Shown here piece by piece: positions 8,990 through 50,286 of a stretch of 51,650 bases of DNA. The stretch is taken from NCBI GenBank assembly GCA_019844455.1, contig GCA_019844455.1_3938.1; one strand, written 5' to 3'. Both the position numbers and the translations under genes were made by a program. Numbering within the stretch: position 1 is the first letter of the stretch; each line of letters opens with the position of its first letter. Source of the stretch: a phage. A model generated the notes under the pieces. It was not told the origin of the DNA, made no database searches, and saw nothing but the letters and a program-made list of their open reading frames with translations.

Positions 8990-14373
<5,384 letters not shown>

Positions 14374-14374
<1 letters not shown>

Positions 14375-15843
14375 TGGCAGGATTAACTACAACAGGATTA
14401 CAAACTCTAAGATATCAGGAAATTTTTGATAATATCAAATCAAGACTTCTTAGAGATATTTCACCAAACCTTGACGTTTCTGAAGATAGCCAATTAGGTC
14501 TCTTCCTAGCTTCAATTGCAAGGTCTTTAGCAGATACACATGAGATTCTATCAGAAATCTATGACGGCGGGACAATTGACAAGGCTGAAGGATTTAACCT
14601 TGATGATATTACAGCTTTGAATGCTGTATACAGATATGTTGCTCAGGCAACAAGGGGTCAGGTTGAGTTTACTGGAACAACTGGTGCTACCATCTCTTCA
14701 ACAACAAGATTGAGAAGTACTGCTGGAAATATCTTTTATCCAGTTAACAATATTACCCTTACCCCATCATATTGTGTTGAAGCTGTTCTTGAAGTTAACT
14801 CTTTACGAACTGATGCAGATTATGTTATTATTATTGATAACGTTATTTTCTCGTATAAACCAACCTCATCAGACACAATTACCACACTACTAACTAAATT
14901 AGCAGAGGCTATTAATGGTGGTATTGTAGCAAAAGCAGAAGTCATTAATGATGGAGCCGCATTAAGAGTCTATAAAGACGAAGGTGATATCATTGCAAGA
15001 ACAAACCCTATGGTTGTCACTGCAACAATGTTTCTGACCTTTACAAAGATTACAACTATTTCAGATGTAGTAGCTGAAGAGGTTGGTGCTACCCCTGCTT
15101 TGGCTGGTACGCTTATTGAGATTGAGACAACTGTTGATGGTCTTGACAGTATTTATAACAGGTATGACTTAACAACTGGTAGAAACGAAGAAACTGACAC
15201 AGAACTTAGACAGAGATATTTAGAATCCTTAGCAGTTACTGGTGTAGGGACTTTGGATGCAATTGTAGCTGCTGTTAAAAGAGTTCAAGGGGTCTCAGAT
15301 GCTTCAGGTGTTGAAAATGATACTGAAGAGACGAACTCAGAAGGTCTTCCACCAAAATCTTTTAAGATTGTCGTAGTTGGTGGTCAAAATGATAATGTTG
15401 CTCAAGCAATCTGGGATACAAAACCTGCTGGTATTAGGGCTTATGGCTCGATTTTTGGCACAGCCTATGATTTAGGTGGTTTAGCACATAATATTTATTT
15501 TAGCAGACCAACACCAAAATACGCATTTGTTAAAGTCTCTTACTCTTTATATGATGAAGAGAGCCTGACAATCCCTGAAGAGGATATCAGAGACAGTATT
15601 GTACAAGGTATTAATGCCTACGGAAGAACTCTTAAGGTTGGTAATGACGTTATCCCTAACAGAATTTATGGGTACATCTATGACGTAATCAAAGGTATTG
15701 AGATTAATGAGGTGAAGGTAGCATTATCAAACAGCCAATCAGTTCCACCTAGTGACGAACAATATACTACAGCAAGAATTACTGTTGACGGTGACCAATA
15801 TACTGTTTGGGAAAGTAGCCAGTATACCATCACTAAGGAGTAA
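14374..15843 (+). CDS. putative baseplate J-like protein
   Basis: 489-aa ORF in canonical position between W-like and I-like genes. Confidence 0.5.
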
Positions 15844-15845
15844 TA

Positions 15846-16700
15846 ATGTTTGAAAAGATTGATAGTGTTTATTATAAAACACTTGATGAAAGAACTGTAA
15901 CACAGTTTAAAGATAAATTTATCTATACAAGTATCTTGAAAGCAATCACTGATGAGCTACAAACACTAGAGGATGTTTGCTGGCAGATGCACACAGAGAG
16001 AAATATCAGGACGTCAGTAGGTCAACAACTTGATAATATTGGCTCACTGATTAAAGTTCCTAGACCTTTAGGTGCTGATGATGAAACATACAGAGCTATG
16101 CTTTATATCCAAATCTTCCTAAGACGTTCTGATACTACTCCAACATTCTTGCAAAAAGCAATTATGACATTGTATGGTGCAACTTTCTCTCAGATTTTTG
16201 AACACATTACTCCTAAGACTGGTGGTATCGTTATCCGTATTAATACTAGAAAAAGCGTTCTTGATGCTGCATATACACTGTCAAAGATTTCTGCAACAAC
16301 CACTGGTTCCGCTGTTATCTTAAGAGATGTTACTTTAAATGGGACCGCTTGGACACCTGTAGAGGTTGCTGATTCATCACTTGCTATTGTTGATGATAAA
16401 GAGAACTGGTTTGTAACTGATGCTAACAGAGGTCTGGTAACAAATAACACTGGTGGCTCTCTGGAGTCCAACCTAGTAGGGAGTCTTGCAGATGCTGGTG
16501 TTATTGATGGTTACTTTAAGGTTGACAGAACAGCAAACTCACAGAGCGATGATTATATGACTGTAGATAGGTCTAATAATAGTGGCTATTTCATTGCTGG
16601 TAAAGAAGCTATTGCAGGTGGTGCATATGGAATCATGGCTGAGGTTGCACAAATTGTCAAAGGCAGAAAAGATAAATCACAACAAGAAGGAAATTCTTAA
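15846..16700 (+). CDS. putative baseplate/tail-fibre attachment protein (gpI-like)
   Basis: 284-aa ORF after J-like gene. Confidence 0.4.
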
Positions 16701-18190: not shown

Positions 18191-18210
18191 GGGGCTTTAT
18201 AGCCCCTTTT
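18191..18210 (+). terminator. intrinsic terminator between the two tail-fibre genes
   Basis: GGGGCT / AGCCCC stem, TTAT loop, then TTTT. Confidence 0.65.
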
Positions 18211-24051: not shown

Positions 24052-24351
24052 TTAATCTGCCAACCTTAAATTAAAATTAACACCAAATTTTTCACAAACT
24101 TCCAACATATACTCAAGGGAGACGTTACCAGTGAGATGGATTATGTTGGATACACGAGCCTGAGAGATACCACAAATTTTAGCGACTTGCTCTTGAGAAA
24201 GACCTCTGGATTTAATCTCTCTCTTAAAACGATGTGCAACGAAATCTCTCATTTCGTCTACATCCATTGGACAAATATAACTCTCCATTTCAGCCTCTCT
24301 ATCAGCCTCCCAATCATCTTGTGGGGCATAAGGGTCAAAAACCTCATTCAT
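24052..24351 (-). CDS. XRE-family helix-turn-helix DNA-binding protein
   Basis: C-terminal LSQEQVAKICGISQARVSNI HTH; likely ATG start at 24351 (MNEVFDP) overlapping the upstream gene's stop (ATGAATGA). Confidence 0.65.
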   Translation of the reverse strand: MNEVFDPYAPQDDWEADREAEMESYICPMDVDEMRDFVAHRFKREIKSRGLSQEQVAKICGISQARVSNIIHLTGNVSLEYMLEVCEKFGVNFNLRLAD

Positions 24352-27745: not shown

Positions 27746-28297
27746 TCAACTTAGTTTTGCAAACTCTCCGTGGAGTTTCATAGCAGCTTCACAGTAAGCT
27801 TTATGGGCTTCTTCTGGTGTGTCAAACATACCAAGATGATAGTTTTTACCTTGTAAACGTATCATTGCTCGAAACCTTTTACTTATCTTCTGTACACCTT
27901 TTGGCAACCCAGATGGGGACTCTCTTGACCGATTGCAAGAGTTTTGTGAAGCTGTACAAACCCTTAAATTCAAGTACCTATTGTCCCAACCGTCCCCATT
28001 CTTATGGTCAACCTGTAAGGTTTTATCAGGTAGATATCCATCCATATACAAGATAACTAAACGATTTGCTTGGTAACCCCTTCCATCAATCAGCAACTGA
28101 ACTGACTTGTGTCCATCAGTATTTGTTCTGTAGTTTCCAGCCCTCTTACCTCCAAATCTAGAGTTAAAGTTTGCATTACCTTCTCTAAACTTCCAAGTAA
28201 AGACCCCTGTTTCGGGGTCGTAGTCCAATAGCTCCTTAAGACGAATTTCTGTAATCATTTCAACACCATCAATGTACTTCCAACCAGCTCTTACCAA
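27746..28297 (-). CDS. HNH homing endonuclease with C-terminal AP2 DNA-binding domain
   Basis: HNH core VDHKNGDGWDNRYLNLRVCTASQN; AP2-like KRFRAMIRLQGKNYHLGMFDTPEEAHKAYCEAA; immediately downstream of DNA polymerase; start may be ATG at 28258. Confidence 0.8.
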   Translation of the reverse strand: MVRAGWKYIDGVEMITEIRLKELLDYDPETGVFTWKFREGNANFNSRFGGKRAGNYRTNTDGHKSVQLLIDGRGYQANRLVILYMDGYLPDKTLQVDHKNGDGWDNRYLNLRVCTASQNSCNRSRESPSGLPKGVQKISKRFRAMIRLQGKNYHLGMFDTPEEAHKAYCEAAMKLHGEFAKLS

Positions 28298-30968
28298 CCT
28301 TACCTGTGCCAGTTACAAGCGTCTCACTCTTCAAACCTAAATTCTTAGATGCCTGACCATACATCCAGTCAGTTATGGCTTTAACTTCTTGAGTCATACT
28401 TTCTGGGCATTCCCAACTGTTTTCATCGTGGTATGCCAGCAAAAGCCTAGCACCAATTGCTGGTTTTCGTCCATTTAATTTTGTCAATCCTTCTTCACAT
28501 GCTCTTCTACAAGCAAGGTTAATTGCCTCATTTTGAATCTGAGCCTCTGAACCCATGAGCAAATAATTCAATAACTTATGTGGAGATTTACACCACAACC
28601 AAGCTCCAGCAACCTTTACAAAACCCCCTTTAGAGATTGCAGCAGTCTTACCAAACACCTCTTCAAGTGCCTTTTTAGTCGCTTTGTAGTCAGCTTCCAA
28701 GTTATCTAATAGTTTCTTAATCTTTGGCAAACGCACAAAGTAAGTCTGTTTAGTTAATGCACCTTCCTGAGTAGTGGCCGCCTTAATAGTTTTAGCAAAC
28801 TTCTCATCACCTGCACCGAACAGCAGTGCATAGATACCATTCTTAGCTTTCTTACGACCTTTGCTAATCTCATGAAGAAGATTCTCATCCTGAGTAGCTC
28901 GACAAGTCAAGATATCCTGCTCATCATTCAAGCTAAAGTAAATACTGTTCAGTGTATGTGCATCAGTCCCTGAATAGACAACGTACAGGTCATTCTCAGA
29001 GTCATAGCGAAGGTACTTATCAACCTCTGGGTTTAGGTACTCATCAAAATGTTTGCAGTAATAGCGTCCATCTTCTTGACGAATAAACTCAATCTCTTCT
29101 TTACCTTGCGTTACCGCTTTGGTGAAGTCTTTGTCACCCATAAAGTTACAAAGGAGAACTAGCTGGGCTGAGTTCATGTCTACAGAGACAACATTAGTAC
29201 CTTCTTCACAAATCCACACTGCCCTCATTGGTTCCCCATAGACAGCCGCACCAGACGGTACGTTTACAATACCATATTGTGTCATACGTCCAGTTGAAGT
29301 ACCAAATACCATTGCACCAGCACTAAGGCGACCATCTGGACGAATCTGGTTTAGCCAACCTTTTTCATCATCCTTTGAGTTCTCAATGGTTCTGCGTCGG
29401 TGCATCAAAGTATAGTATTTAGCAATCTTCTGTCCAAGCTCACCTTCAATCGTATCATAAGAAGATTCAGTAAGTTTTGGTGAAGTACGGATTAAGCAAG
29501 GTTCAAGCAAATCCGTGTACTTCTTCACAGACCAGTTATGTTCGATGTACTGGACACCTTCGTGTTCAACATAACTCAACCCACACCGTTCAACCATCTC
29601 CTGCCACTTAGGATGCTTTGTAATCATCTTTTTGTTGTCTTTGAAACGACAAACTTTGACAGGGCGACCGTCTGAATCTTTCTTGTAGTTCCAGTCATCT
29701 GGAATCCAACCAACTGATTTCAAGTAGTCTTTAACAACTGCTACCTGAGTCATACGAGAAACTTCAAACTCAATTGGTGTATATGGTGCATCAATCAATC
29801 CTGTGTAGCGACTTGACTCAAGCTCAAAGTGGTTAACAACATGACTGTTATAGTACTTCACAGTTTTAACTGTTTTTACTGGCTTCCAGTCTTTGCATTT
29901 CTTACCAATCTTTGCATTCAACTCATTGCAAATTGCACGAGCATCCTTCATTGCTACAAAACCCTCCTTGTACTCTTCACCAGTTACAGAGTTGGTTGGT
30001 GTATAGCAATTTCTCTTTTCAATGTTAAAAATCTTTGTAGTTGGCTTACCAAATGGCTTGATTTCATATGTCTGCATCTCACCGTTACGTACCTGCTGAC
30101 GATACTTTGTCTTAGGGTACTTGGTAATTCTCTTCAGTCCATCTGCGTGACCAAATGCTTCAACATACTCATTCCAAGCTTTTGCAAACTCTTCTCCAGT
30201 GACTTTACCTTTGGTCTTAATAGTTGGAGGAAGATGTGGTTCAACTTCTGAAGCAAGCTCATTAGTCAACTTGTCAAGTTCCTTTACATGGAACTCCATA
30301 AGCTCTTTATCAGCTTTCCAACCATTGATAGCTTGTTGACTCATCCAGAAAGATGTTTCTTTAGCTCGCATATAGGTTTCATAAGTGTCTATGCCACACT
30401 TCTTTAGCTTGAGATACTCATTATCCAGTGCGCGTTTAGTTTTGGCGTTAATACGGATATCTTCCACAACACGAGTGAAGATTTCTGCATTCCACACACC
30501 CCAATGTTCAATCTCTGGTTTACGGACACCAACACGAGCACCCCATGCAGCCAAGCCATGAGCACCTTTATAGCCTTTTGGAGTTGGTCTATCCATCCAC
30601 TGAACACGAGACTGGATAAGAGAATCCTGAAAGAAATTACTCCACGGCTTACACTTTGGATTATCAAAGTTCCATAAATCAGGTGCAATGTGATTGAAAA
30701 CCCACCAGTCATAACCCAGACCATTATGGATGCAAAGTCGTTTTGCCTTTAACGCAAACTCAATACCTTCACGCAAACCACCCTTGATGTACTTGGTGTA
30801 TTTGTGACCGAGGATAGGCTCATCTGTAAAGACCCATACAGGTGGCTCTTCATCGTCAGATTTATAGTCTGCGAAAGCCATTACGTGCACTTTAGTGAAC
30901 TCAAGGAGTAAACCATCAGTTTCTGTATCACCAACTAAATGTAAGTTTTTAAAATCTACGTTTTCCAT
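28269..30968 (-). CDS. DNA polymerase, family A (Pol I-like) with 3'-5' exonuclease domain
   Basis: Exo I motif VGDTETDGL; motif B-like KKAKNGIYALLFGAG; motif C LLAYHDENSWE; RBS GAGGGAG before ATG at 30968 (MENVDF). Confidence 0.85.
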   Translation of the reverse strand: MENVDFKNLHLVGDTETDGLLLEFTKVHVMAFADYKSDDEEPPVWVFTDEPILGHKYTKYIKGGLREGIEFALKAKRLCIHNGLGYDWWVFNHIAPDLWNFDNPKCKPWSNFFQDSLIQSRVQWMDRPTPKGYKGAHGLAAWGARVGVRKPEIEHWGVWNAEIFTRVVEDIRINAKTKRALDNEYLKLKKCGIDTYETYMRAKETSFWMSQQAINGWKADKELMEFHVKELDKLTNELASEVEPHLPPTIKTKGKVTGEEFAKAWNEYVEAFGHADGLKRITKYPKTKYRQQVRNGEMQTYEIKPFGKPTTKIFNIEKRNCYTPTNSVTGEEYKEGFVAMKDARAICNELNAKIGKKCKDWKPVKTVKTVKYYNSHVVNHFELESSRYTGLIDAPYTPIEFEVSRMTQVAVVKDYLKSVGWIPDDWNYKKDSDGRPVKVCRFKDNKKMITKHPKWQEMVERCGLSYVEHEGVQYIEHNWSVKKYTDLLEPCLIRTSPKLTESSYDTIEGELGQKIAKYYTLMHRRRTIENSKDDEKGWLNQIRPDGRLSAGAMVFGTSTGRMTQYGIVNVPSGAAVYGEPMRAVWICEEGTNVVSVDMNSAQLVLLCNFMGDKDFTKAVTQGKEEIEFIRQEDGRYYCKHFDEYLNPEVDKYLRYDSENDLYVVYSGTDAHTLNSIYFSLNDEQDILTCRATQDENLLHEISKGRKKAKNGIYALLFGAGDEKFAKTIKAATTQEGALTKQTYFVRLPKIKKLLDNLEADYKATKKALEEVFGKTAAISKGGFVKVAGAWLWCKSPHKLLNYLLMGSEAQIQNEAINLACRRACEEGLTKLNGRKPAIGARLLLAYHDENSWECPESMTQEVKAITDWMYGQASKNLGLKSETLVTGTGKVGKSWLEVH

Positions 30969-31028
30969 TTTTACTCCCTCTAAAATCATTAACCTCATAC
31001 ATTACTGCAAAAAATTATAAAAAGCAAG

Positions 31029-31058
31029 TTGACAATGTACTTGACAAGGTGTTAATCT
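31029..31058 (+). promoter_or_regulatory. weak candidate promoter in divergent control region
   Basis: TTGACA-N18-TAATCT; tandem TTGACA hexamers at 31029 and 31041. Confidence 0.25.
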
Positions 31059-31164
31059 TTGCGAAGTGGGTTTTTACTTAAAAGGTTACTTAACAGTTTA
31101 ACTATACAGATACTTTAAAACTCTTAAAAGATTATTTAATAGCTTTTAAAAAGCTTTAAAGTAT

Positions 31165-31181
31165 AACGTATAGAATACGTT
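31165..31181. repeat. perfect 7-bp inverted repeat AACGTAT-AGA-ATACGTT (operator-like)
   Basis: Palindrome 45 bp upstream of first plus-strand gene; overlaps TAGAAT hexamer. Confidence 0.6.
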
Positions 31182-31225
31182 AAGATAAAAGATTAAAACT
31201 TAATAGTTACTTAAAAGAGGCTTAC

Positions 31226-31648
31226 ATGCAGAAAATGTTTGTTCACCCAGACATAGCTGACTTTGTTAGAGCTTTGCAGAAGTTGGAAGAACTTGACATT
31301 GCTGCTCAACGGGAATATGCTCACCATCACAGGAGAATGGTTGATATACAACATGAAATAGAGTTGTCTGAAAACTATGAAGATGACTTAAAATGCTCTG
31401 TATTTGAGCATATGAAAGATGTTGCTACAGCGAGACGTAAAGCTAAAGACACAGTTGCTTTACTAGATTCTCTTAAAAAGAGGTTGCAAAGTGGTACAGA
31501 CCTGTGTAATCTAGCGTCACTGATTAATGATGTTGAAACTTCTTGGGATAGACATTACTATCCACGTTCTGAAAAGACACTTGACTTTTCTTCATCCGAA
31601 AACTTAAAATGTTCTAGAAAGAAACTTAACCAACTGAGAGAGAAATAA
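31226..31648 (+). CDS. hypothetical early protein
   Basis: 140-aa ORF, RBS AAGAGG; first gene after divergent control region. Confidence 0.5.
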   Translation: MQKMFVHPDIADFVRALQKLEELDIAAQREYAHHHRRMVDIQHEIELSENYEDDLKCSVFEHMKDVATARRKAKDTVALLDSLKKRLQSGTDLCNLASLINDVETSWDRHYYPRSEKTLDFSSSENLKCSRKKLNQLREK

Positions 31649-31649
31649 T

Positions 31650-32462
31650 ATGAATACTACTGTAGACCAGATGCTTGAAGAAAAAGGTATTGACGAAGCT
31701 TTCTTAATCAATGCCGTAGAAAGCATGGCTATGATTCTTCGTGGAAACAACTACACAGAACAGTTTATGCCTGCAAGCTATAACCTGCCTAAAGACAAGT
31801 CTGATAACGGTGCTTTTGCAGAACAGGTTAATATGATGCTGTGTGACAAAACACTTGCTTTAGCATCTATTGTTGTAGGTGTTGATGCTCTTGCAGAGTT
31901 CATTTTTTATGAGATGCAGAAAAATGACTATATTGCCATGACCTCTGAAGAAAAAGACTCGCTATTGCTCTTAGATAATAATGAGCTAGTTGACCTGTTA
32001 ATTTCGTCAACGAGTGCTGTTATGGCTGCTCTTGAGAAGCGCATGGAAGAGAAGCTGTCACGATATGAAAAACTTGATTGGGGTGTAGAAGAGTTAAACC
32101 CACGAATCAAAGAGATTATCCAGCAAACTAAAGATTCTTTAGAAGAAGCTGTGAAAGATGATTCTGTAGCTGATGTAGAACCACTACAGGTGAAGGTTGC
32201 TCTGATGATTCCAGCTATTTCTACAATGATGAATATCGTTGCACTAATCCAACTTTCTCAGATGTTGGGAGTAACCATTGAGTTCGTTGAGGAAATGACT
32301 GGCGGTGTGAGTATGCAAGCAATCAATGATGTTTTGGTAAGCATCGGTGCTTCAATCATTGAAGAGAAGCTTCGCATTAACTTCGGTGATGATTTTGTTA
32401 AGCAAATCTCAGCTATGGCTGAAAAAGAACACTCACAGATTAATACTAACCAACTACACTAA
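31650..32462 (+). CDS. hypothetical acidic early protein
   Basis: 270 aa, strongly Glu/Asp-rich; RBS GAGAGAG. Confidence 0.5.
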   Translation: MNTTVDQMLEEKGIDEAFLINAVESMAMILRGNNYTEQFMPASYNLPKDKSDNGAFAEQVNMMLCDKTLALASIVVGVDALAEFIFYEMQKNDYIAMTSEEKDSLLLLDNNELVDLLISSTSAVMAALEKRMEEKLSRYEKLDWGVEELNPRIKEIIQQTKDSLEEAVKDDSVADVEPLQVKVALMIPAISTMMNIVALIQLSQMLGVTIEFVEEMTGGVSMQAINDVLVSIGASIIEEKLRINFGDDFVKQISAMAEKEHSQINTNQLH

Positions 32463-33275: not shown

Positions 33276-33476
33276 ATGAAGATGAGAGTAAAAGATAATT
33301 TCAAAGTTATTGACCATCGTTTAGTGGAACTCTCATCTCTTTCCAATGAGGTAATGATTGAACGTCTTAAGAGAGTTGAATCACGAAGGAAAGAGATTGC
33401 AGATGAAATCCATGAACTGGACAAGATTGAAAATGGATTGAAGGCAGAACTACAACGAAGAGGTGCTAATGTCTAA
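33276..33476 (+). CDS. hypothetical small coiled-coil protein
   Basis: 66-aa ORF overlapping start of primase-helicase. Confidence 0.35.
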   Translation: MKMRVKDNFKVIDHRLVELSSLSNEVMIERLKRVESRRKEIADEIHELDKIENGLKAELQRRGANV

Positions 33477-35454
33477 AGGTCGTAAATTGAAAGAGGCTGG
33501 TCAGTTTGTTGGTCATTGTGCATGTCCACGTTGTGGTTCATCAGATGCTGGTTCAATCTATCATCATGACGATGATTCTTATTCAATGACTTGCTTTAGT
33601 TGTAACAAAGGTTTCCCAGAGTGGGATTTTGATAAAGGACAAATCGTGAGCACTTATTCTACTGGTTCAGACAATAAAAACCGTACTTTCCGTGGAATGG
33701 ATTTAGACGATGTGAAAGAAAACCTTGAAGCAATGGACTTAAAGGATAGGAAGATTCCTGCAAAAGTCCTTGAACGCTTAGGTATCAAGGTTGACATTGA
33801 CAGTGATGGTGAAATTGATGCGCACTTCTATCCAACTTACAAACGTAATGAAGATGGTAAGCTAGAACATGTTGGTTACCGTGTTCGTCATCGTTACCCA
33901 GAAGACCATCCAAAAGAGCACCTACGTGGTAAGCTAAAAGACTTTTCTGGTGGTGTTGGAGACATTAAAGGTGAACTGGCAATGTTCGGTTCATGGATTG
34001 CTCCAGAAGGTGGTAACCGTCTATTCATCTGGGAAGGTGAGATGGAATGTGCGACAGCAATCTATATGACCTCTCTTGCGATTAAAGACAAGTCTCGTCG
34101 TAAGAATTACTGTCATGTATCTGTTCCGTCAGGTGCAAACATCAAGTCTATCAAAGATAACTATCAGTACATCACATCATTTGATGAGATTTACTTGTGC
34201 TTTGATAATGATGAAGCAGGTGCTAAAGCTACCAAAGAGGCTGCTGGTATCTTACCTATTGAGAAGGTTCGTTTATTCCAGTATCCAGAAGGTGTAAAAG
34301 ACCTTAATGAATGGTGGACAAAGTTCTATAAAGAAAAAGACACAGTTCTTGAAGGGTTTAAGCAGCGTATCTACAATGCACCTCGTTATTGCCCTGCTGG
34401 TATCAAGAACTTTGCAGATGGTTTTGAGGCAATGAAGAATCGTGGTCAGATTCCATTGATTCCTTTCCCAGAGTCTTTCGGGGATTTGAATAGACTGACT
34501 TATGGTGGTTATGGTTTAGGTGAGATTACGACTATTGCAGCACCATCTTCAGTAGGTAAGTCAGCTTACACTCGCGAGATGATTTATTCAGCTTGGAAAG
34601 AAACTGATTACAATATCGGTGTAATTCCTGTAGAAGATACTTACGAAGAACTTATGGAAATGCTCTGTGCAATCCACCTGAGCAAGCAGATTTCTGAGAT
34701 TCCTTATGACGAACGTGATTGGGATGAATTGAAGGAGGCACACGCAGAACTATCTAAAGGTCGTCGTATCCACATCGTAGACCATCAAGGGGCAATTGAC
34801 CAAGATAACTTGCTGGAGTTTGTTGACTATCTTGTTAACAGCCTAGATTGTAAGATTATCATTCTTGACCCTATTACATTGGCTCTGTCACGTTCAGATA
34901 CGGATGAAGAGGAAGTTTTGTCTGAGCTATTGCGTCGTTGCAAACGCTACCAGTATGCGCAGGTAAACGTATGTCACGTTCGTAAGAGTGCAGGTGGTCA
35001 GAAAGCTAACTCTGAAGGTGGGGATATCTCTGAAGAGGATATCAAGGGTTCTGGTGCGTATTTCCAGATTTCCATGAATAATATTTTGTTAATGCGTAAC
35101 AAGGTTGACCCAGACCCTGTTAAGAAAAACTTGACAAAAATCAAGTTAACTAAATGTCGTCGTCACGGTAAGTCAACGGGTATTGCTGGTCATACTTGGT
35201 ACAATCCAGATACAGGACGTCTTATCAAAGCTTCTGGATGTGGAGTTGACATTGATGGTGCAGCAGAAAATATTCGTCAACAGTTTGGTATTGGTGAAGC
35301 TGAAGACCATTACGATGACTCTTTGCCACATTATGAGGATGAAGTGTTTGACCGTGAGACTGGTGAAGTTTATACTGAAGAACAGCGTCAAAGTTCAACG
35401 ATTCCACCTGTATTAAGTGAGGATGCAGATGACTGCCCGTTTGAAACTGAGTGA
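33469..35454 (+). CDS. DNA primase/helicase (T7 gp4-like)
   Basis: N-terminal zinc ribbon CPRCGS...CFSCN; TOPRIM-like FDNDEAGAKAT; DnaB-like Walker A APSSVGKS. Confidence 0.85.
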   Translation: MSKGRKLKEAGQFVGHCACPRCGSSDAGSIYHHDDDSYSMTCFSCNKGFPEWDFDKGQIVSTYSTGSDNKNRTFRGMDLDDVKENLEAMDLKDRKIPAKVLERLGIKVDIDSDGEIDAHFYPTYKRNEDGKLEHVGYRVRHRYPEDHPKEHLRGKLKDFSGGVGDIKGELAMFGSWIAPEGGNRLFIWEGEMECATAIYMTSLAIKDKSRRKNYCHVSVPSGANIKSIKDNYQYITSFDEIYLCFDNDEAGAKATKEAAGILPIEKVRLFQYPEGVKDLNEWWTKFYKEKDTVLEGFKQRIYNAPRYCPAGIKNFADGFEAMKNRGQIPLIPFPESFGDLNRLTYGGYGLGEITTIAAPSSVGKSAYTREMIYSAWKETDYNIGVIPVEDTYEELMEMLCAIHLSKQISEIPYDERDWDELKEAHAELSKGRRIHIVDHQGAIDQDNLLEFVDYLVNSLDCKIIILDPITLALSRSDTDEEEVLSELLRRCKRYQYAQVNVCHVRKSAGGQKANSEGGDISEEDIKGSGAYFQISMNNILLMRNKVDPDPVKKNLTKIKLTKCRRHGKSTGIAGHTWYNPDTGRLIKASGCGVDIDGAAENIRQQFGIGEAEDHYDDSLPHYEDEVFDRETGEVYTEEQRQSSTIPPVLSEDADDCPFETE

Positions 35455-48538: not shown

Positions 48539-48562
48539 GGGAACTGTAAAGGTTCCCTTTTT
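48539..48562 (+). terminator. intrinsic terminator
   Basis: GGGAAC / GTTCCC stem, 7-nt loop, then TTTTT. Confidence 0.7.
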
Positions 48563-49374: not shown

Positions 49375-50256
49375 ATGAAAACATCTATCCGTGTTACAGT
49401 TCATTCACCAACTAAAGGAACTCATGAAGAAGAGTTTAACATCATCCAATTTCCTTCTGGTGAGATTGGTGGACACTTTTCGCCAGAGTTTGTTGATTTC
49501 ACTGCTTATGCAGCATCATCCATCAACAATGTGATTATGATTGTAAAAGGTTATGATAAGGATACATTGTTTGCTGTGGCACTTGCTAAAGAAGCAATTG
49601 ATGATTTAATTCCTCATGATTATGCTTTAAAGACTGTCATCTTTTACTACTTACCAAATGCACGTTATGACCGTCACATGTTTAAAGGCGACGCAGCAGC
49701 TTTAAAGGTTTTTGCTAAACAGGTAAATGCAATGGGATTTGGTGCAGTCTGTGCAGTTGACCCTCACAGCTATGTACCAGATAACCTGTTTAACTGCTTC
49801 CAGAGTATTCCTCAAAAGGAAATTGCAGTCCACTATGCAAATGACCCACTGATTGATTACTTAGTAGCCCCAGATGCAGGTGCTGCTAAGAAGATTGCAG
49901 AGACTGCTAAAGAGGTGGATAAACCATATATCACAATGTCTAAAGTACGCAACCTTAAGACTGGTGAAATTACTGGTATGCGAATTCTTGATGATGTTGA
50001 TTTGACAGATAAAACCGTCATGATTCTGGATGATATCTGTGATGGTGGTCGAACCTTCATAGAAGCAGCTAAACATCTTCGTGAAGCAGGTGCAAAACGT
50101 GTGGAACTCTATGTAACACACGGTATCTTCTCTAAAGATGTTGAAAACCTTCTTGACAATGGCATTGACCACATCTACACTACAAACTCTTTAGGGGAAG
50201 CTAAAGACCGTGGCTTAACACATTATGGTCAAGTTACTGTAGCAAACCTTGATTGA
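49375..50256 (+). CDS. prs: ribose-phosphate pyrophosphokinase-like protein (Prs family; possible ADP-ribose pyrophosphokinase)
   Basis: Prs-like domain order incl. FPSGEIGG, YLPNARYDRH, AVDPHS, and PRTase loop MILDDICDGGRT; ATG at 49375 with GAGAGAG RBS. Confidence 0.75.
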   Translation: MKTSIRVTVHSPTKGTHEEEFNIIQFPSGEIGGHFSPEFVDFTAYAASSINNVIMIVKGYDKDTLFAVALAKEAIDDLIPHDYALKTVIFYYLPNARYDRHMFKGDAAALKVFAKQVNAMGFGAVCAVDPHSYVPDNLFNCFQSIPQKEIAVHYANDPLIDYLVAPDAGAAKKIAETAKEVDKPYITMSKVRNLKTGEITGMRILDDVDLTDKTVMILDDICDGGRTFIEAAKHLREAGAKRVELYVTHGIFSKDVENLLDNGIDHIYTTNSLGEAKDRGLTHYGQVTVANLD

Positions 50257-50265
50257 AACTTTATA

Positions 50266-50286
50266 GGGGCTTAAAAGCCCCATTTT
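50266..50286 (+). terminator. stem-loop/terminator between Prs-like and NAMPT-like genes
   Basis: GGGGC-TTAAAA-GCCCC followed by ATTTTG. Confidence 0.5.

Follow-up and report, generated by a model that had tools for sequence, protein, structure and literature searches.

The gap at positions 30969 to 31225, which separates the minus-strand DNA polymerase gene (ATG at 30968) from the plus-strand operon beginning with the ATG at 31226, is best explained as a compact divergent control region with two back-to-back promoters on the left and an array of octamers on the right. We suggest that the array is a helically phased, DNA-level binding platform for a putative protein, located just downstream of an early promoter, and we put the probability of this explanation as a whole at roughly 0.45. 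The window, meaning the whole stretch of 51,650 nucleotides analysed here, comes from a Felixounavirus, a Felix O1-like phage, and the gap corresponds to the divergent region known in Felix O1 as "gene 96-97". The Felix O1 genome paper (2010) assumed early promoters in this gap and recognised none, and it described the temporal control of transcription as unknown. A first-pass annotation of the window had proposed that the gap, flanked by the polymerase gene and an early operon, is a divergent control region; the gene context and the Felix O1 paper bear this out, the operon being one of early replication genes. No small open reading frames are present within the gap. The features of the region, resolved by comparison among Ounavirinae, are as follows.

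30966 to 30978, minus strand: start of the polymerase gene, with the ATG at 30968-30966 and the ribosome-binding site GGGAG at 30978-30974, read from the sequence.
30999 to 31027, minus strand: candidate polymerase promoter, with the predicted -35 TTGCTT at 31027-31022, a 17-nt spacer, and the -10 TAATGT at 31004-30999.
31019 to 31028, plus strand: AAAAAGCAAG block, invariant in 19 unique sequences.
31029 to 31034, plus strand: TTGACA, the -35 hexamer of the operon promoter P97, a 6/6 consensus match kept in all relatives examined.
31041 to 31046, plus strand: second TTGACA, inside the P97 spacer.
31050 to 31058, plus strand: extended -10, TG(t)TAATCT, with the TG at 31050-51 and the hexamer at 31053-31058, 18 nt of spacer from 31034.
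31064 to 31074, plus strand: predicted transcription start (31064-31066, placed from the -10) and conserved initial transcribed sequence AAGTGGGTTTT.
31077 to 31217, plus strand: octamer array of about 13 degenerate copies, head to tail, consensus CTTWANAG, from unit segmentation.
Array units 1 to 4: 31077 CTTAAAAG, 31089 CTTAACAG, 31102 CTATACAG, 31113 CTTTAAAA.
Array units 5 to 8: 31123 CTTAAAAG, 31135 TTTAATAG, 31146 TTAAAAAG, 31154 CTTTAAAG.
Array units 9 to 11: 31166 ACGTATAG, 31177 ACGTTAAG, 31184 GATAAAAG.
Array units 12 and 13: 31199 CTTAATAG, 31210 CTTAAAAG.
31164 to 31182, no strand assigned: perfect dyad TAACGTAT-AGA-ATACGTTA, embedded in the array, from the inverted-repeat listing.
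31215 to 31228, plus strand: Shine-Dalgarno sequence AAGAGG at 31215-31220, continuous with the last octamer, followed by the operon ATG at 31226; GAGG and ATG are invariant.
31226 to 31648, plus strand: first operon gene, encoding a 140-aa all-helical protein (PHROG 4039, unknown function).

The plus-strand operon is probably transcribed from P97, a presumably strong sigma70-type (host-type) promoter with a predicted start near 31065. The -10 hexamer TAATCT matches the consensus at 3/6 positions, with A2 and T6 present, and is TG-extended; A2 and T6 are found in all relatives (TAATCT, TAGTCT, TAGGCT, TACATT, TATCCT, and TAACTT). A consensus promoter and terminator scan left P97 below threshold because the -10 matches only these three positions, and the same scan found no terminators and nothing terminator-like in the leader. 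The annotation of the related phage AYO145A marks a promoter at the same site, with 3 mismatches. The pattern TTGAC(A/T)-17/18-TAnnnT is kept in six lineages (SUSP2, Moogle, Arno18, FIfi106/L064, PMBT37/L065, and L066), and it persists where the polymerase is only 60% identical and the neighbouring protein is down to about 39% identity. Between genera, the promoter block is 87 to 95% identical, compared with 54 to 65% at third codon positions. The A-tract of the AAAAAGCAAG block, at about -41 to -45 of P97, is UP-element-like, and the complement of the block supplies the -35 of the candidate polymerase promoter. Within the initial transcribed sequence, AGTGGGTTTT is almost invariant. RT-PCR timing in Felix O1 showed genes 96, 101, and 105 to be transcribed within 5 min of infection. 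P97 is proposed from sequence conservation as a concrete promoter where the Felix O1 genome paper recognised none.

Both TTGACA hexamers reported by the first-pass annotation are present. The second is invariant in three genera and occurs also in the paralogous promoters P45 and P26, being absent in the Kolesnikvirus-like relatives and in L066; there is no usable -10 at 16 to 18 nt downstream of it. Another tandem-TTGACA match in the window, at 50141-50170, lies inside a coding sequence and was discarded.

On the minus strand, the open reading frame list offers a longer polymerase frame reaching 30998; the Suspvirus and Mooglevirus records annotate a start equivalent to 30968, and the ribosome-binding site and ATG used here are invariant among the 19 unique sequences. 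The polymerase is annotated as family A. The first-pass annotation found no clean sigma70 promoter for this gene; a weak candidate does exist, with each hexamer matching the consensus at 3/6 positions, and its position is conserved. Its spacing and the TAnnGT form of its -10 (TAATGT, TAAGGT, TAGTGT, or TAGGGT) are kept in Felixounavirus, Suspvirus, and Mooglevirus, while the spacer sequence differs, suggesting a weak candidate promoter back-to-back with P97.

The array occupies about the first 150 transcribed bases, counted from the predicted start, with a mean period of 11.1 bp, or about one DNA turn. The repeats listed earlier are real: CTTAAAAG is present three times, at 31077, 31123 (given before as about 31122), and 31210, TAAAAGATTA twice, at 31125 and 31186, the near-palindrome GCTTTTAAAAAGC at 31142-54, and, at 31165-81, the inverted repeat AACGTAT-AGA-ATACGTT, whose arms lengthen to 8+8 when 31164-82 is taken. 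The repeat count was nevertheless too low, as about 13 tandem units emerge once degenerate copies are included. The autocorrelation of the array sequence peaks at lag 11 (z = 3.0), and the period is 11 to 13 bp in every lineage. Strict CTTWANAG occurs 6 times in 31076-31217, compared with 0.03 in 20,000 composition-preserving shuffles of the segment, and CTTAAAAG has 14 copies in the window compared with 3.9 expected, none of 100 shuffles reaching 14. The array is also the densest motif cluster of the 51.6-kb window, with 9 relaxed matches per 170 bp where no other place has more than 3. A both-strand EM motif search collapsed to the degenerate palindrome YTTWWAAR and was left unused.

The sequence is low in complexity and AT-rich, with a G+C content of 20%, which would fit a spacer of no specific function in which slippage or duplication produced the repeats. 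We regard this as hardly credible, given 81 to 95% identity between genera against 54 to 65% at synonymous sites (81 to 87% for the array itself, against the same range at third codon positions) and at least 99% identity in 176 of 259 records across 501 bp with the gap in the middle. The octamer cores are far more conserved than the spacers, with 68/80 invariant columns compared with 19/42 (p = 7e-6), the variation falling mostly at the W and N positions, and the architecture is kept alongside a polymerase of 60% identity.

The dyad within the array covaries among the 19 unique sequences, with A:T replaced by T:A in 7 and C:G by T:A in 3 and no pair broken, and it is lost as a dyad in Arno18 and the Kolesnikvirus-like relatives. 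We rejected it as a repeated operator, since it is present as a single copy in the window and nowhere else in a related genome.

The octamer words are not confined to the gap. The first-pass annotation had named a lack of the motifs upstream of other genes and in relatives as grounds against its reading; copies are found elsewhere in the genome of the phage and relatives conserve them, and that objection falls away. In AYO145A, the words also follow two paralogous tandem-TTGACA promoters, P26 and P45, each with an A-tract upstream equivalent to that of the AAAAAGCAAG block, and all three promoter-linked arrays are in sense orientation. In relatives they fill the 581-bp terminal repeat, as defined by PhageTerm, and its flanks in both orientations, with CTTAACAG and its complement CTGTTAAG at exact 11-bp steps. 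This gene-free region carries dozens of octamer copies, and its arrays contain 29 TGTTA, mostly at 11-bp steps. The terminal repeat was placed via the Pr103Blw record; the UAB_Phi87 record does not begin at the physical end. In relatives, some 50 kb separate the counterpart of the window array from the genome ends, and the sister arrays adjoin or occupy the terminal repeat. The sharpest arrays are those in the terminal repeat, beyond convergent terminators, where promoters are not above chance.

In the intergenic DNA of the window outside this region, the motif density is 5.8 compared with 1.2 per kb, about fivefold enriched. This enrichment, together with the undescribed timing mechanism of Felix O1 transcription, would be the case for the octamers as middle or late phage-specific promoter elements, as had been proposed. 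We reject this as highly unlikely, because in every relative the octamers form a phased array downstream of a sigma70-type promoter. The copies are tandem at one-turn spacing rather than single at a fixed distance upstream of genes, and most other intergenic copies in the window are found at terminator hairpins, either within or next to them, instead of where promoters would be, in some cases forming the hairpin loop (for example GGGGCTTAAAAGCCCC), with dozens more in the gene-free terminal repeat.

The two other functions that had been suggested, operator elements and an origin-like region, are both live readings. In the binding-array explanation that we prefer, a sequence-specific protein would bind one octamer per turn and polymerise cooperatively along one face of the DNA. 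As the array is directly downstream of the start site, the bound protein would throttle or time transcription of the replication genes, and the occupied array may also favour the overlapping polymerase promoter. Since the same word is found at two paralogous promoters and in the terminal repeat of relatives, the binder would probably be a phage factor acting throughout the genome. The anatomy, phasing, conservation, paralogy, and helix instability of the region are observed, whereas the transcription start, the binding of a protein, and the regulatory effect are predicted. The agreement of the array period with the DNA helical repeat, and the same words in the terminal repeat and behind the two paralogous promoters, argue for recognition at the DNA level. 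On the other side, the -10 of P97 fits the consensus at only 3/6 positions, the sense orientation of the three arrays and the octamers in terminator loops fit recognition at the RNA level equally, extreme AT-richness alone could account for the instability of the helix, and phased A-tracts could act by intrinsic curvature without a dedicated protein.

The adjoining proteins offer no obvious binder. The 140-aa protein is restricted to Ounavirinae, with only 9 homologue clusters, all of them from relatives, and its gene always adjoins the array. Its AlphaFold model shows long helical hairpins (pLDDT 72.5) and, by structure search, no DNA-binding fold, with no significant structural match and no sequence match in the PDB, which counts against the binding array. 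A sub-threshold Pfam match to a small terminase (E = 0.048) is not evidence for such a function. The next operon protein, annotated as a "minor tail protein", has a model too poor to judge its fold (pLDDT 53.5), and with this reservation no initiator or DNA-binding domain is recognisable in the proteins adjoining the array. In favour of the binding array, a Cro/C1-type helix-turn-helix protein is encoded in the neighbouring polymerase gene cluster (24055-24351, minus strand). A T7 gp4-like primase-helicase with Toprim_2 and DnaB_C domains (PHROG 239) is encoded at 33463-35451.

TGTTA is an ArcA half-site, and the terminal-repeat arrays of relatives share it at exact 11-bp steps. In the gap, TGTTA is found at 31091 (minus strand), inside one unit of the array, and at 31050, in the promoter spacer. 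As a precedent for the binding array, ArcA-P binds two to five direct repeats with an 11-bp centre-to-centre distance and represses by occupying promoter regions (PMC3798270). The array resembles operators of ArcA-P and the OmpR/PhoB family in its head-to-tail degenerate direct repeats at about 11 bp, and the proposed cooperative occupation has its counterpart in ArcA-P. Unlike ArcA sites, there are about 13 repeats here and dozens in the terminal repeat, and TGTTA is present in only one array unit.

Many short, helically phased repeats at the promoter of the operon's first gene, with further arrays elsewhere on the replicon, are also reminiscent of iteron and centromere arrays, such as the P1 incC-repA iterons and the parC site of plasmid R1, where ten 11-bp repeats are bound by ParR. 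The present units differ in being 8-bp cores in 11-bp repeats rather than 17- to 22-bp iterons, and they belong to a virulent phage whose genome has terminal repeats; the proteins adjoining the array include none that is Rep- or ParR-like.

A formal parallel exists in T7, where C(C/T/A)TAAAG heptamers recur at exact 13-bp steps in bases 175-355 (autocorrelation z = 9.2). This "SRL" array occupies the stretch from the terminal repeat to the early promoters, and its word resembles the CTTTAAAG, CTATAAAG, and CTGTAAAG variants; in relatives of the source phage, the octamers fill and flank the terminal repeat. The period is 13 rather than 11 bp, however, and the T7 array is upstream of early promoters, whereas the window array is downstream of one. 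As the T7 short repeats have, to our knowledge, no settled function either, the likeness is one of form rather than of mechanism.

A transcription-activated origin is a competing explanation that is compatible with the binding array and that we consider doubtful. Here, transcription from P97 by host RNA polymerase would run into the most easily melted DNA of the genome, and an R-loop or the opening of the duplex would give the primer and the loading site for the primase-helicase and the polymerase, with the octamers as accessory iterons or merely the form taken by an AT-rich unwinding element. Whether lengths of 60, 100, or 150 bp are taken, no duplex in the window is less stable than the array (-161 kcal/mol compared with a mean of -192, sd 6.3), and this is so in the complete 87-kb AYO145A genome as well; at the Arno18, FIfi106, and PMBT37 loci, stability is likewise lowest in the homologous segment. 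A conserved promoter is directly upstream, the T7 gp4-like primase-helicase and family-A polymerase flank the site, which is at the divergence point of two replication gene clusters, and helically phased tandem direct repeats with an AT-rich unwinding element are features of iteron-type origins. The T7 primary origin, where the tandem promoters phi1.1A and phi1.1B lead into an AT-rich region, and the T4 origins oriF and oriG, where a promoter and a downstream unwinding element give R-loop priming, likewise have a promoter firing into the least stable AT-rich DNA by replication genes. The likeness to T7 extends to the T7-type primase-helicase and family-A polymerase, and the tandem -35 hexamers recall the tandem T7 promoters. 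Unlike these origins, the promoter is of the host sigma70 type and not phage-polymerase or MotA dependent, the AT-rich part is more than AT-rich DNA, consisting of a conserved word arrayed in order at 11 bp, and the module has two paralogues; as promoter plus array are found at two other places and the words in the terminal repeat, several origins would be needed. The interval 30969-31225 contains no DnaA boxes, IHF sites, or GATC. GC skew, which had been proposed as an origin test, gave no independent support and is uninformative, since its minimum coincides with the coding-strand switch and the third-position skew is about zero in three of four transcription units. A search of the literature found no replication data for this phage group.

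Recognition in the RNA leader is rather improbable in our view. The roughly 160-nt AU-rich 5' UTR would then carry CUUWANAG sites for an RNA-binding protein, acting autogenously as in T4 gene 32, or for the ribosome or S1 as a translation enhancer, and the dyad would be a hairpin. The array lies in sense between promoter and start codon in all lineages and in the three paralogous modules, its last unit runs into the Shine-Dalgarno sequence, and octamers form terminator hairpin loops. The two compensatory pairs of the dyad are what a hairpin would show, and the predicted fold of the leader is slightly better than that of shuffled sequences (z = -1.96). Covariation is found in no predicted helix other than the dyad, however, an outer helix between the 5' end and the ribosome-binding site is unsupported, and comparing 30800-31400 with Rfam under permissive settings gave only noise, with nothing near a gathering score. 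The 11-bp period is that of the DNA helix and has no obvious meaning in RNA, and the sharpest arrays are those of the terminal repeat described above. The T4 gene 32 operator is an unstructured AU-rich leader with repeated UUAAA/UAAA words that is cooperatively bound by the gene product, and the present leader resembles it in being AU-rich and in its repeated UUAAA-containing words, which continue to the ribosome-binding site. Here, no 5' pseudoknot was found, there is no indication that the first gene product binds nucleic acid, and the octamer words are also present in untranscribed-looking terminal DNA at the period of the DNA helix.

A more far-reaching version of the DNA-level explanation, which we offer as speculative and unlikely as it stands, is that the octamer word phased at 11 bp serves as a phage-wide address label read by a single dedicated putative protein. 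The label would fill the terminal repeat and its flanks and follow the three tandem-TTGACA early promoters. The Ounavirinae-only helical protein, or the small terminase that seems to be missing from these phages, would be candidates for the reader, which would couple early-promoter shut-off, or origin firing at the most easily melted site of the genome, to genome-end processing. In a variant, the arrays would capture a host response regulator such as ArcA-P.

In the literature on Felix O1-like phages, covering start-site maps, transcriptomes, origins, and iterons, we found no prior description of a promoter-plus-array element. The analysis supplies a cis-element defined by its coordinates, consensus, phasing, and sister arrays, which may act as an operator array, as an unwinding element or origin, or in connection with the genome ends. 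Felix O1 is a classical phage of diagnostics and biocontrol. If the array is the platform of a dedicated protein or an origin, it would give a handle on regulation and replication across an entire subfamily of phages for therapy and biocontrol, and it would be a site to avoid or to exploit in phage engineering.

The 257-bp gap (30969-31225) between the minus-strand polymerase gene and the plus-strand replication operon matches, with its flanks, 256 phage records, nearly all of them Felixounavirus (Felix O1, wV8, and similar), with a top identity of 99.7%. The minus-strand gene is annotated as DNA polymerase in relatives, where the plus-strand order is a 140-aa hypothetical protein, a "minor tail protein," a dNMP kinase, a T7 gp4-like primase-helicase, an exonuclease, and nucleotide-metabolism genes. 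Because of this gene order, the gap corresponds to the Felix O1 "gene 96-97" intergenic region. In the Felix O1 genome paper of 2010, divergent promoters in this region were assumed to start early transcription, no promoter-like sequence was recognized there, and the temporal control of transcription was called unknown. Transcripts of Felix O1 genes 96, 101, and 105 appear within 5 min, and the later record AYO145A (NC_028825.1) has two weak promoter matches annotated inside the gap. The sequences recorded as "Campylobacter phage A132" (MG065664.1) and "Staphylococcus phage SA1" are 87-100% identical to Felixounavirus genes; both entries are probably mislabelled or contaminated.

The gaps of Felixounavirus, Suspvirus, and Mooglevirus were aligned and compared with those of distant Ounavirinae (Arno18, FIfi106, PMBT37, and three metagenomic contigs), located via the polymerase and the 140-aa protein. 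All compared gaps share the plan TTGAC(A/T), 17-18 nt, and then TAnnnT (TAATCT, TAGTCT, TAGGCT, TACATT, or TATCCT, frequently TG-extended), and in every one this promoter, here named P97, is oriented away from the polymerase.

Elements of the divergent control region
31029-34, plus strand: P97 -35, TTGACA
31050-58, plus strand: P97 TG-extended -10, TG(t)TAATCT
directly before the -35, plus strand: P97 A-tract, invariant
31027-31022, minus strand: candidate polymerase -35, TTGCTT
31004-30999, minus strand: candidate polymerase -10, TAnnGT
31164-82: dyad, TAACGTAT-AGA-ATACGTTA, taking the place of about two array units

Judging from the hexamers, transcription from P97 would start near 31065. 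The P97 spacer contains a second TTGACA, without a usable -10 of its own, which is invariant in the three genera and absent from the most distant relatives. Between genera, the P97 block is 87-95% identical, compared with 54-65% for the flanking genes at third codon positions. The distant Kolesnikvirus-like contigs L064 and L065, and also L034 and L035, have a second good sigma70-type promoter downstream of the array (TTGACT-18-TAAGAT or TATGAT, TG-extended), about 60-30 nt before the first gene in L064 and L065, so that two tandem promoters bracket the array; in the window, the dyad occupies the corresponding position.

Downstream of P97, an array of about 13 units (31077-31217), each with a (W)(W)NAG end, follows at spacings of 12, 13, 11, 10, 12, 11, 8, 12, 11, 7, 15, and 11 bp (mean, 11.1). 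All motifs named in the first-pass annotation are present, to within one base of where it placed them, and their repetition exceeds chance, with 14 copies of CTTAAAAG in the window against 3.9 expected. The strict octamer CTTWANAG occurs six times in 31076-31217, the densest motif cluster within the window, compared with 0.03 times in shuffles of the same AT-rich segment. The autocorrelation has its peak at lag 11 for the window and for Moogle, and at lag 12-13 for Arno18, a Kolesnikvirus-like contig, and the distant relative L066; all these relatives carry their own array version between promoter and start codon (CTTAACAG, CTTTAAAG, CTTTATAG, CTTTTAAAG).

Among 19 unique sequences from the three genera, 68 of 80 columns are invariant in the octamer cores versus 19 of 42 in the spacers (p = 7e-6), and within the cores variation falls at positions four and six, where the consensus has W and N. 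As the cores are kept and the spacers are not, selection acts on the word and not on base composition alone. Genera share 81-87% identity across the array, and 176 of 259 records reach at least 99% identity over 501 bp centred on the gap. In contrast to the near-identical gap, the protein encoded two genes downstream falls to 38% identity. Nearest-neighbour energies place the weakest 60-, 100-, and 150-bp duplexes of the window in the array (150-bp duplex, -161 kcal/mol; window mean, -192, SD 6.3; next segment, -172). In the complete 87-kb AYO145A genome, too, no segment is less stable than the array, and the homologous segments are the stability minima within the Arno18, FIfi106, and PMBT37 loci.

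Many records call the second operon gene (31650-32462, plus strand) "minor tail protein," although it lies within the early replication operon. The gene changes rapidly although near-invariant noncoding DNA lies close by: its product is 85-95% identical within the genus and 38% identical to Mooglevirus-like homologues. The protein has no Pfam or PDB match and a poor AlphaFold model, and the annotation is probably wrong.

The motifs recur elsewhere and are conserved in relatives, in paralogous modules, the terminal repeat, and the distant Ounavirinae arrays. A scan of the complete AYO145A genome revealed two paralogous promoter-plus-array modules (13445-13643 and 24175-24350), each with an A-tract, tandem TTGACA 12 bp apart, a TAnnnT -10, and then CTTAAAAG-type units. 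The 24.2-kb module occupies the genome's second divergent junction, published as Felix O1 "P41," upstream of the tRNA and structural gene block; the other module is at 13.45 kb. The octamer words recur densely, together with their complements (CTTAACA, CTGTTAAG, CTTGTTAG), in a 1.5-kb gene-free stretch (AYO145A 14880-16350), where TGTTA returns every 11 bp exactly (autocorrelation z = 11.5 at lag 11), forming two oppositely oriented blocks with the switch in orientation near 15.3 kb. When the PhageTerm-defined ends of Pr103Blw are mapped, this stretch proves to be the 581-bp direct terminal repeat together with the DNA on both sides of it. Three CTTAACA units at 11-bp spacing open the physical left end, and Arno18 has an equivalent gene-free region with CTTAACAG words. 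Most other intergenic octamers of the window lie inside or beside terminator hairpins, some of whose octamers have further octamers 11 bp off; their presence there may be coincidence or a shared recognition feature.

Related loci outside the gap
MW481326.1 1-1212: Pr103Blw terminal locus
MW481326.1 87384-88421: Pr103Blw terminal locus
18191-18206: Rho-independent terminator hairpin, loop plus closing pair forming the octamer GGGGCTTTATAGCCCC
48539-48557: the same, GGGAACTGTAAAGGTTCCC
50266-50281: the same, GGGGCTTAAAAGCCCC

We rejected the first-pass suggestion that the octamers are phage-specific promoters, as they stand in tandem after a conserved promoter and are abundant in gene-free terminal DNA.

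The 50 bp adjoining the polymerase start are the gap's least conserved part (10 of 38 columns invariant; identity, 61-77%). The first-pass annotation saw no clean sigma70 promoter for the polymerase, but a minus-strand TTGCTT, a 17-nt spacer of varying sequence, and TAnnGT are found at fixed positions across the three genera. With three of six consensus matches in each hexamer, this pair is a plausible weak candidate promoter for the polymerase; its -35 abuts that of P97, and therefore both promoters would compete. The polymerase ORF (28269-30998, minus strand) is readable from ATG 30998 or from 30989, the AYO145A annotation. ATG 30968, the annotated start in Suspvirus and Mooglevirus, has a strong RBS (GGGAG), and the conserved candidate promoter lies upstream of it; the gene is probably over-extended by 7-10 codons in many records. 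An HNH endonuclease with an AP2 domain is encoded immediately downstream of the polymerase (27749-28297, minus strand), and in Kolesnikvirus-like relatives an inserted homing endonuclease separates the polymerase start from the control region (L034 1968-2444; L035 2038-2517). Homing endonucleases appear to have a hotspot at this polymerase locus.

The dyad is a single copy in the genome. Its pairs show two compensatory changes and no broken pair among the 19 unique sequences, and its symmetry is therefore functional, although relatives beyond the three closest genera do not keep it as a dyad. Its possible roles are a hairpin or an operator for a dimeric protein. The polymerase cluster encodes a 99-aa Cro/C1-type HTH (HTH_3) protein (24055-24351, minus strand), the only recognizable DNA-binding regulator in the examined part of the window and a candidate reader of this 17-19-bp dyad.

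Iteron and centromere arrays are repeats laid out at one site per turn, and the array has the form of iteron origins, but the proteins encoded beside it show no recognizable initiator domain. With the sites of ArcA-P, which binds 2-5 repeats at 11-bp spacing (PMC3798270), it shares form and not sequence. The closest formal analogue among those checked is the T7 left end, where C(C/T/A)TAAAG heptamers repeat every 13 bp exactly, in the interval that separates the terminal repeat from the early promoters; these resemble the octamer word but differ in period and position. We argue for recognition of the array at the DNA level, because its period is the DNA helical repeat, its cores are selected, and its word is found in the terminal repeat. 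By analogy, its reader is likely a putative protein that would bind one octamer site per helical turn and spread as a filament along one DNA face, and such a filament, sitting just past the start site, would block transcription of the replication operon or set its timing. Among possible binders, the Cro/C1-type HTH protein was considered; the 140-aa neighbor is a helical-hairpin protein without a fold match, with homologues in Ounavirinae only.

The main rival, which is compatible with a binding array, takes the array and P97 as a replication origin. P97 would fire into the DNA that melts most easily, flanked by genes of a T7-like replisome, a layout shared with the T7 primary origin and T4 oriF/oriG, but the gap has no DnaA or IHF sites. 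Cumulative GC skew, which the first-pass annotation proposed as a check, does reach its minimum at 31 kb, but this coincides with the strand switch and cannot test an origin; in AYO145A the third-codon-position skew is +0.14 (bootstrap, 0.07-0.19) in the polymerase-to-thymidylate-synthase cluster and about 0 in the other three of the four transcription units. Action in the RNA leader is supported in part, as the array is always in sense orientation, its last unit is fused to the ribosome-binding site, octamers occur in terminator loops, and the dyad covaries. However, an RNA reading leaves the helical period and the terminal-repeat arrays unexplained, covariation is confined to the dyad, and the element belongs to no curated Rfam family.

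No description of Felix O1-like arrays was found in the literature searched, and we rate the element as new to that literature, its kind, phased repeat arrays at promoters or origins, being known. The element brings the regulation of Felix O1 and the start of its replication within reach of defined experiments.
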